63,217 bases of DNA from the NCBI RefSeq assembly GCF_003334255.1, contig NZ_QOWU01000026.1. One strand, 5' to 3'. Of the stretch, positions 61,415 through 62,509 are shown one piece after another; the stretch's first letter is position 1; the number at the start of each line of letters is the position of its first letter. The position numbers were made by a program, and so were the translations under genes. The notes under the pieces were generated by a model. That model saw nothing but the letters and a program-made list of their open reading frames with translations, was not told the DNA's origin and did no database searches. Source of the DNA: Escherichia coli. Its GTDB lineage: Bacteria > Pseudomonadota > Gammaproteobacteria > Enterobacterales > Enterobacteriaceae.

Positions 61415-62509
61415 TTGTTCTATGTGAGCACAGGCTCGCTTATCTCCTCAGGAAGATTAAAACCAGGCAAAATCAAACGTGTTTCAGCAAAGAGCGATCA
61501 AAACGGTATCATCGGAGAGTTTGATACCGAGTTTATGGATGATGCAAGGCATTATGAAAATTTTATAAGCGTTAATTTTTTTGGAGATGCTTTTTATCAT
61601 CCTTATTGTGCCAGCGTAGAAATGAAGGTGCATGTTCTTACATTAAAATCAAGTAAGTCCGACTTTAATGCAAAGCGCGGACTGTATGTTGCCAGTATGA
61701 TTAATAAAGCTTTAAAGGGGCGTTTTAATTATGGTCAACAGTTATCGAGTTCCAAACTCAGAGATGGAGAATATTTCATCTCATTACCAGTGAAAAATAA
61801 TGAAATTGACTGGTTTTTTATGGATAATTATATAGAAGAGCTGGAAGCGGCCCATATAGAAGAGCTGGAAGCATACCTGATAGCTGCTGGGCTGAGTGAT
61901 TACCAACTAACGGAAAAAGATTATCTTATCCTGGAACATTTTAAAAATATTGAATTTTCAGGCTTTCCTGTTACTGAGTTATTCTCAGTGTGCAATACAG
62001 GAAACATATTGTCTAGAGACATCATAGAAAATAGTGGGGATGTTCCTTATCTTTGTGCTAGCCGTGATAATAACTCTGTTAGTTCTTATATCGCCTATGA
62101 TGACTCACTCTTGGAAAAAGGGAACTGTATTTTTATTGGTGGTAAGACATTCGTTGTAACTTATCAGGAGCGAGACTTTTTTTCAAACGACAGTCATAAT
62201 TTGCGACTCTATGTTAACAATGAGGATGGAAGGACAAAGTTTGCTTATTTGGGCATTATTTCATGTATTTATAGGTCTATTTCACATAAATATTCATGGG
62301 GGGATAGTGTTAGTAATAGAAAAATTAAGAACGATGTTATTTGGTTGCCAGTGAAAAATAAGTCACCTGACTTTTGTTATATAAATGACCTTATTTCAGT
62401 TGTTCATAAGCTTGTCATTAAAGATGTTGTCCAGTACGCAGAACGCAAAATGAACGCATACAGGCAAGCTATAACAAGTCGCGGTTATGATGATTCTGGT
62501 GTCAGTTAA
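61415..62509 (+). CDS. Restriction-modification specificity (S) subunit with two target-recognition domains
   Basis: 364 aa from TTG; frame open back to 61334 (..VEWGEFRIGDLFYVSTGSL..); central IEELEAAHIEELEAYL repeat; C-terminal ..VVQYAERKMNAYRQAI.. Confidence 0.65.
   Translation: MFYVSTGSLISSGRLKPGKIKRVSAKSDQNGIIGEFDTEFMDDARHYENFISVNFFGDAFYHPYCASVEMKVHVLTLKSSKSDFNAKRGLYVASMINKALKGRFNYGQQLSSSKLRDGEYFISLPVKNNEIDWFFMDNYIEELEAAHIEELEAYLIAAGLSDYQLTEKDYLILEHFKNIEFSGFPVTELFSVCNTGNILSRDIIENSGDVPYLCASRDNNSVSSYIAYDDSLLEKGNCIFIGGKTFVVTYQERDFFSNDSHNLRLYVNNEDGRTKFAYLGIISCIYRSISHKYSWGDSVSNRKIKNDVIWLPVKNKSPDFCYINDLISVVHKLVIKDVVQYAERKMNAYRQAITSRGYDDSGVS
61830..61872. repeat. 24-bp tandem duplication inside S gene central conserved region
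   Basis: atatagaagagctggaagc-ggccc-atatagaagagctggaagc encoding IEELEAAH IEELEAYL. Confidence 0.85.

Follow-up and report, generated by a model that had tools for sequence, protein, structure and literature searches.

Several restriction-modification systems offer points of comparison for the locus described here. The Type IIB enzymes BcgI and BsaXI combine a fused nuclease-methylase with an HsdS-like S protein carrying two target-recognition domains (TRDs), in an (RM)2S arrangement. In the BsaXI heterotrimer S is a separate subunit, and the BcgI B subunit is likewise a separate polypeptide. Between its TRD1 and TRD2, the S gene of a Type IIG (BcgI-like) system of Helicobacter pylori carries a 24-bp unit repeated in tandem, in 0 to 4 copies (Furuta 2011, PMC3077401). 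The published unit, CAGTGTCGGCTCGCCGAACTTGAG, encodes QCRLAELE (PMC3077401), and the 24-bp repeat polymorphism is already on record for this gene, which is homologous to the one analyzed below (Furuta 2011). Hpy99XXII, of the HP1471/JHP1364 family, recognizes TCA N6 TRG (Krebes 2014, PMC3936762), and motifs could not be assigned to the repeat variants of the H. pylori Type IIG S gene (PMC3983042).

Shorter central repeats are known from Type I enzymes. In EcoR124I/II, an increase from two to three copies of TAEL changes the spacer from N6 to N7, with unequal crossing-over altering the copy number and the half-sites remaining unchanged (PMC3874165). The Group 2 Type I S genes of H. pylori carry a 12-bp repeat in 2-6 copies (PMC3077401), and three versus four of the four-residue repeats correspond to 7 versus 8 bp between the methylated bases (PMC3983042). 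We found no description in the literature of the enterobacterial prophage system considered here or of its motif. The methylome papers on STEC O111, ST131, Bibersteinia and H. pylori give no motif for the E. coli system, and the Type IIG enzymes that they treat are different single-chain systems, or inactive.

The window analyzed here is a 63,217-nucleotide stretch of Escherichia coli DNA. A first-pass annotation, made from the sequence alone, had noted a 24-bp tandem duplication encoding IEELEAAH-IEELEAYL between the two TRDs of a presumed Type I S subunit, and had proposed that unequal crossing-over at this duplication could switch specificity. The tandem repeat and its position are confirmed. 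The 19-mer ATATAGAAGAGCTGGAAGC has exactly two matches in the window, at 61830-61848 and 61854-61872 on the plus strand, and none of 100 dinucleotide-preserving shuffles contains a match, even with three mismatches allowed. This 19-mer is the exact core common to two 24-nt units that are spaced 24 nt apart and are 88% identical (Table 1), and Tandem Repeats Finder reports a period of 24, 2.2 copies and a score of 69. Both units are in frame within the ORF ending at 62509, in the protein context FFMDNYIEELEAAHIEELEAYLIAAGL, that is, FFMDNY, the units IEELEAAH and IEELEAYL, and IAAGL. Pfam places a Methylase_S domain on either side of the repeat (residues 12-152 and 184-314).

Table 1. Features of the RM and S genes and their surroundings, in window coordinates
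Feature	Coordinates	Strand	Description or basis
RM gene	59394..61355	+	653-aa fused PD-(D/E)XK nuclease and N6-adenine methyltransferase
Slippery heptamer G_GGA_AAG (candidate)	61346..61352	+	in RM frame; RM stop TAA (61353-61355) directly after
S coding region	61346..62509	+	-1 frame of RM; open from 61334
Hairpin, 13 bp, candidate frameshift stimulator	61358..61396	+	starts 5 nt after heptamer; MFE -23.3 kcal/mol, z -5.9
TRD1	61391..61795	+	Pfam Methylase_S, AlphaFold2 model, HsdS fold matches
Central alpha-helix of S	61811..61885	+	AlphaFold2; residues 154-178 (25 residues), repeat = 161-176; numbered from 61352
Repeat unit 1	61830..61853	+	24 nt; IEELEAAH codons from 61832
Repeat unit 2	61854..61877	+	24 nt; IEELEAYL; terminal unit, 3' end diverged
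TRD2	61955..62356	+	Pfam Methylase_S, AlphaFold2 model, HsdS fold matches
C-terminal helix of S	62372..62479	+	AlphaFold2 model; 36 residues
Terminator-like hairpin and T-run after S gene	62577..62602	+	sequence

The Type I assignment of S does not stand. Its sole partner is a fused nuclease-methylase, which aligns along its entire length with the PADLOC model REase_MTase_IIG (E 6e-228). Pfam identifies N6_Mtase in this protein and, weakly, VRR_NUC at the N-terminus (residues 5-57); the translation shows the motifs PD...EYK, DFATGSAG and NPPY, and the NCBIfam search returned only HsdM and MAD2 matches, both sub-threshold. No HsdR gene is present near the operon, whose flanks consist of hok/sok and phage genes, and the unit is 24 bp in length rather than the 12 bp of TAEL. 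Because nuclease and methylase are fused and HsdR is absent, the system belongs with the BcgI-like Type IIB/IIG enzymes and not with Type I. Two features of that group are present in the window, namely a single chain that joins an N-terminal PD-(D/E)XK nuclease to a gamma-class N6-adenine methylase, and an adjoining HsdS-like S gene with two TRDs. The operon lies inside a lambdoid prophage, with hok/sok upstream and an sRNA downstream, and its sequence is shared at 100% identity with Escherichia phage PhiR12_3. Judged by gene content, the system is a two-gene BcgI-like Type IIB/IIG unit (RM + S) carried as a moron on the prophage. In one relative, the RM+S system is located directly upstream of stx2.

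Similarity to the known systems is graded. The PADLOC models of BcgI length match both proteins with E-values of 2.6e-44 and 9e-21, as against 6e-228 for the closest model, and BcgI and BsaXI, with the same combination of a fused nuclease-methylase and a two-TRD S protein, are only distant sequence relatives. The H. pylori Type IIG system is much nearer. The window S protein and an H. pylori S protein (P0057) align with E 3e-101 and 48% identity over 392 columns that span both TRDs and both helices, and CAGTGTCGGCTCGCCGAACTTGAG occurs in locus L011 at the position aligned to the window repeat. The two systems share a 24-bp, 8-residue period at the same position (QCRLAELE versus AAHIEELE), a copy number that varies between strains and a two-gene layout in which S lacks a start codon after the RM stop. 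They differ in that the system described here is an enterobacterial lambdoid prophage moron, that the DNA of the unit is different and that isogenic 2-, 3- and 4-copy alleles with zero other substitutions are found here. [quoted passage not shown] The Group 2 Type I S genes of H. pylori also have a central tandem repeat flanked by conserved sequences at which TRDs are exchanged, although in their case with a 4-residue unit and in a Type I system.

Neither the S nor the RM protein matched any PDB chain by sequence at E <= 1, and S therefore had to be compared by fold. For S, NCBIfam likewise yields no match and PADLOC gives a match to Specificity_II. An AlphaFold2 model of the window (2-copy) S protein, built with 69 homologues, has a mean pLDDT of 91.7 and a pTM of 0.74, and arranges the chain as TRD1, a 25-residue helix containing the repeat, TRD2 and a 36-residue C-terminal helix. 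The best Foldseek matches of this model are the HsdS proteins of M. genitalium (1ydx), M. jannaschii (1yf2), EcoKI (2y7c_A) and EcoR124I (7bst_A), and the BsaXI S subunit (8w0p_C), from a Type IIB enzyme, is matched as well. Pfam, AlphaFold2 and Foldseek thus agree on an HsdS fold, in which two TRDs alternate with two long helices. By homology to solved HsdS structures, the central helix is expected to pair with the C-terminal helix in a coiled coil. We also modeled the 4-copy protein and compared the two models by their helix lengths: the central helix remains continuous and grows to 41 residues (pLDDT ~86-92), and the C-terminal helix is still 36 residues long. The pTM of the 4-copy model is 0.64, down from 0.74, which fits a less certain arrangement of the domains. 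Alleles with two, three and four copies have the same C-terminal helix sequence, and the partner helix thus shows no compensating change.

Two important questions for the repeat are (i) does the number of units vary among otherwise similar S genes and (ii) what would such variation do to the recognized DNA site. For the first question, the predicted variability is demonstrated by differences between strains, and the number of units is not fixed across homologous S genes. The full-length allele is present in 20 of 5426 complete E. coli genomes, two of which (SCU-104 and JNEC-KY173) have three perfect units and are 24 nt longer. Four units are found in the draft E. coli assemblies GCA_012445685.1 and GCA_019658305.1, where the inserted units are again perfect copies. 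Relative to the window, SCU-104 and the 4-copy loci carry zero substitutions across the 3127-bp RM+S operon and are distinguished only by the 24- or 48-nt insertion; in SCU-104 this identity extends to 4.0 kb. Between the window and other 2-copy haplotypes there are 7 to 24 SNPs. Such zero-SNP backgrounds indicate that the unit number changes fast relative to substitution. At the protein level, E. coli S proteins with two, three or four units differ by nothing but an 8- or 16-residue indel, the corresponding Salmonella proteins are 100% identical apart from the indel, and Microcystis proteins with two versus three units are 98.9% identical apart from it. Two or three units are likewise the numbers seen in other distant relatives. 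A sister E. coli allele with another TRD1 and the same TRD2 occurs with one, two, three and four units. The proposal that the repeat is a substrate for copy-number change is therefore upheld by natural 1-, 2-, 3- and 4-copy alleles, several of them with no substitution elsewhere.

Among the 120 closest cluster representatives, raw counts give 90 proteins with two units, 20 with three, four with four and five with one, plus one that is unclassified. Four of the five one-unit calls (P0058, P0059, P0074 and P0086) are diverged two-unit forms, and P0015 alone is truly a one-unit protein. The 71 classifiable representatives at 50% identity comprise 55 with two units, 11 with three and five with one. 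Two units are the ancestral default of the whole protein family. The arrangement in the window is a genuine tandem repeat, as first described, but not a fresh duplication, since ~77% of the 50%-identity representatives have it. In distant lineages the two units are kept as protein and have diverged as DNA, which implies that the two-unit helix is ancient and that a true DNA repeat is maintained by some lineages only. What sets the enterobacterial alleles apart is that the DNA of their units is kept nearly identical. Variants within the unit (AAH, ASH, ATH, VAH or ETAH; GAG or GAA) are the same across all units of one allele, a uniformity that indicates repeated expansion and contraction inside alleles (concerted evolution). 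The dominance of two units in all lineages suggests an optimum.

For the second question, the number of units probably retunes the recognized DNA site, as in related enzymes. We consider it fairly likely that the units serve as helix modules whose number is varied by slippage or crossing-over, with a consequent shift in the recognition-site spacer and in specificity. Each 24-bp unit encodes one 8-residue module of the central helix that joins TRD1 to TRD2. Since the tandem units are nearly the same DNA sequence, whole in-frame units could be gained or lost by replication slippage or unequal crossing-over, giving the range of one to four. By calculation, each unit would lengthen the helix by ~12 Å and turn it by ~80 degrees, and TRD2, together with the RM subunit docked there, would be displaced relative to TRD1. 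The two half-sites would stay as they are while the non-specific spacer between them grows, by ~2 bp per unit when scaled from the 4-residue repeats of EcoR124I/II (TAEL) and H. pylori Group 2, which account for 1 bp each. The 8-residue step exceeds every experimentally tested step, and our literature search found no methylome or cleavage data for any allele of the enterobacterial system.

It is also possible that the length polymorphism is neutral, with the coiled coil and linkers absorbing 8 residues at constant specificity and spacer, and the tandem DNA merely unstable. Consistent with this idea, the 36-residue partner helix is longer than the 25-residue central helix of the 2-copy protein and has room for three units (33 residues), and target spacing is reported to bear no simple relationship to the length of the central region (Bower 2018, PMC6158711). 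We nevertheless regard neutrality as unlikely. In all S families that have been tested, the spacing shifted when helical repeats were added (PMC3874165, PMC3983042), and the modeled helix is continuous and rigid, with no loop to take up 12 Å per unit. The limitation of copy number to 1-4, with a strong mode at two, is also unlike the behavior of an unconstrained array.

Alternatively, unit numbers other than two may misalign the two RM subunits and lower or abolish activity, so that a prophage or host could shed costly restriction while retaining the genes. The prevalence of two units as the default across phyla is in keeping with such attenuation or inactivation, as is the lower confidence in the domain arrangement of the 4-copy model. 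The only 1-copy E. coli allele examined adjoins an RM gene broken by a stop codon, and the 3- and 4-copy alleles otherwise identical to the window are too recent to have been tested by selection. Against this, 3-copy alleles are common, with P0121 on 57 contigs and P0005 on 107; they recur in many phyla and occur next to intact RM genes. In addition, locus L032 has three units that have diverged as DNA next to intact RM and S genes, which indicates long-term function and that a three-unit protein can be maintained over long periods. A general loss of activity away from two units therefore seems improbable. The weakest explanation, wrong collapse or expansion of a short repeat during assembly, is brought to mind by draft proteins that start or end inside the repeat (P0123, P0126 and P0134), where short-read assemblers break, but is very hard to reconcile with arrays of 48 to 96 bp, below read length, with the 3-copy form in closed chromosomes and with the recurrence of every form in many independent assemblies.

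If the helix-module model is correct and the repeat switches specificity in one slippage event, otherwise identical prophages would differ in their methylation and restriction patterns. In pathogenic E. coli and Salmonella, prophage-borne restriction systems shape the uptake of phages and plasmids. The natural 2-, 3- and 4-copy alleles also constitute a ready experiment for mapping helix length to DNA spacer in 8-residue steps, a relationship so far measured for 4-residue steps in Type I enzymes only.

The central segment may have a second function. In megablast comparisons, the match to alleles with a different TRD1 starts only at the repeat or within 14 nt of it (61830 or 61816), and what other S genes share with the window is limited to ~60 nt surrounding the repeat. 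Such matches would be expected from TRD cassette exchange at a conserved central segment. TRD1 and TRD2 cassettes may thus also be swapped between alleles by crossing-over in the conserved repeat stretch, and TRD exchange through conserved sequences flanking the central repeat has been described for H. pylori (PMC3077401).

The junction between the RM and S genes is unusual in that the S frame lacks a usable start codon. The first ATG, GTG or TTG of this frame is at 61415, inside the N-terminus conserved in the family (GKVNSPLSDKLRSVEWGEF), and annotators place the S start at ATT, TTG or GTG within the conserved motif. The RM gene ends in GCG GGA AAG TAA, which contains the candidate slippery heptamer of Table 1. 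Each of the 21 IMG/VR loci with an RM ORF has an in-phase heptamer, located 0 to 3 nt ahead of the RM stop, in the form G_GGA_AAG, G_GGA_AAA or A_AAA_AAG. In every one of these loci S occupies the -1 frame, and it either lacks a canonical start or has its first one 63 to 138 nt further downstream; the sole exception is locus L034, where the distance is ~30 nt. The same layout is seen in Salmonella, Microcystis and H. pylori, the heptamer of the latter being C_CCA_AAG, and the peptide read through the RM stop in the -1 frame is likewise conserved.

A hairpin follows the heptamer in the window and in its relatives. Homologues have a 12-14-bp hairpin 4 to 6 nt after the heptamer, and an alignment of 10 of them reveals compensatory changes at three to four of the pairs. 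Standard pairs occupy 95.8% of the hairpin pair cells, compared with 37-51% in slid controls, and RNAalifold independently predicts the same helix. MFEs of the single-sequence hairpins range from -17 to -24 kcal/mol, with z from -3.5 to -6.2. No Rfam element is known at the RM/S junction, and there are no tRNAs nearby.

These features lead us to propose, tentatively, that in this widespread BcgI-like family S is no free subunit and would arise solely from a -1 slip of the ribosome at a conserved X_XXA_AAR heptamer in the last codons of RM, assisted by the covarying hairpin. An RM-S fusion would then be produced beside free RM, and this recoding would fix the (RM)2S ratio. Within the fusion, the ruler of 1-4 units would step the spacer by ~2 bp per unit, and prophages could diversify specificity without point mutation. 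This combined scheme is possible, but we would not call it likely. An alternative is termination-reinitiation at a GTA or GTG codon that overlaps the RM stop. Our limited literature search found nothing relevant on ribosomal frameshifting in restriction-modification systems. The absence of an S start codon has been suggested as the likely reason for the reported inactivity of H. pylori systems (Krebes, PMC3936762), and a frameshift cassette, if real, would explain family members that are scored as inactive or as lacking an S start codon. In contrast to BsaXI, with its separate S subunit, S would here apparently be reached by frameshifting. We also note that uninterrupted in-frame RM-S fusions occur in relatives of the system (P0235, with 983 aa, P0208 and P0286).

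The specificity gene S is a candidate for expression as an extension of the nuclease–methylase RM, joined to it by a −1 programmed frameshift (coordinates are given in the table below). A heptamer of the form X_XXA_AAR lies in phase with RM, 0–3 nt ahead of its stop codon, and S is read in the −1 frame relative to RM. In nearly all loci the conserved N-terminus of S has no canonical start codon before it (in H. pylori a GTG overlaps the RM stop), and conservation extends to the −1-frame peptide that spans this stop. A covarying hairpin of 12–14 bp begins 4–6 nt 3′ of the heptamer. 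This layout is present in 21 of 21 IMG/VR loci that have an RM ORF, as well as in E. coli, Salmonella, Microcystis and H. pylori; besides the window, the homologous loci concerned are L003, L004, L009, L011 (H. pylori), L012 and L013–L036. Neither a literature search nor Rfam yielded a match to the RM–S frameshift element.

A fused RM–S polypeptide is a natural form of this family, since RM and S constitute one uninterrupted ORF in the relatives P0235 (983 aa), P0208 and P0286 (...DYLSWEVSQILKKDSPSRGVLSQKEKELSDKLKSVKWEKK...). The P0235 fusion has a single unit of the central-helix repeat (FIEELEAYL).

Features of the RM–S region and of a sister allele
Feature	Location	Remarks
Candidate −1 programmed frameshift region	window 61334–61424	RM to S
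Slippery heptamer	window 61346–61352	
RM stop	window 61353–61355	
Downstream hairpin	window 61358–61396	
sok antitoxin RNA of hok/sok module	window 58719–58893	just upstream of RM; Rfam, 118 bits
sRNA STnc100	window 62696–62912	downstream of S; Rfam, 149 bits
ADSRTRGL array	L038, about 2560–2720	E. coli OkiPb01714, Stx2 prophage

We also note a small alternative hairpin (GCGGGAAAGTAAATTCCCCGC) at window positions 61344–61364. The slippery heptamer lies within this structure, which competes with the 5′ arm of the larger hairpin downstream.

Annotation of S is inconsistent, with the start of one and the same gene given as ATT, TTG or GTG, and a frequent database name is 'type II restriction endonuclease subunit R'. 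In E. coli SCU-104 the annotation divides S (L001, 3043–4179) between a 'pseudogene' and a second CDS, yet the gene contains no frameshift.

The ~60 nt around the 24-bp repeat (window 61816–61880) are the only DNA common to otherwise unrelated S alleles (genome matches H22–H31), and some genomes hold 3–4 such places. Breakpoints of TRD1 replacement coincide with the repeat, and contigs of draft assemblies frequently end there (P0123, P0126, P0134). The only one-unit allele among the E. coli alleles examined is that of L007 and L008 (GCA_001902675.1 and GCA_001902685.1). The adjoining RM is interrupted by a CGA-to-TGA stop and called as 100 aa + 444 aa; this system may be decaying.

Sister alleles carry a second 8-residue tandem repeat, ADSRTRGL, next to the first, in the linker that follows the central helix; it is absent from the window allele (observed in P0038, P0045, P0048, P0050, P0052, P0054 and P0094). 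Its copy number is 1, 2, 3 or at least 6. In L038, whose system is followed directly by tRNA genes and stxA2, a frameshift inside the array splits S.
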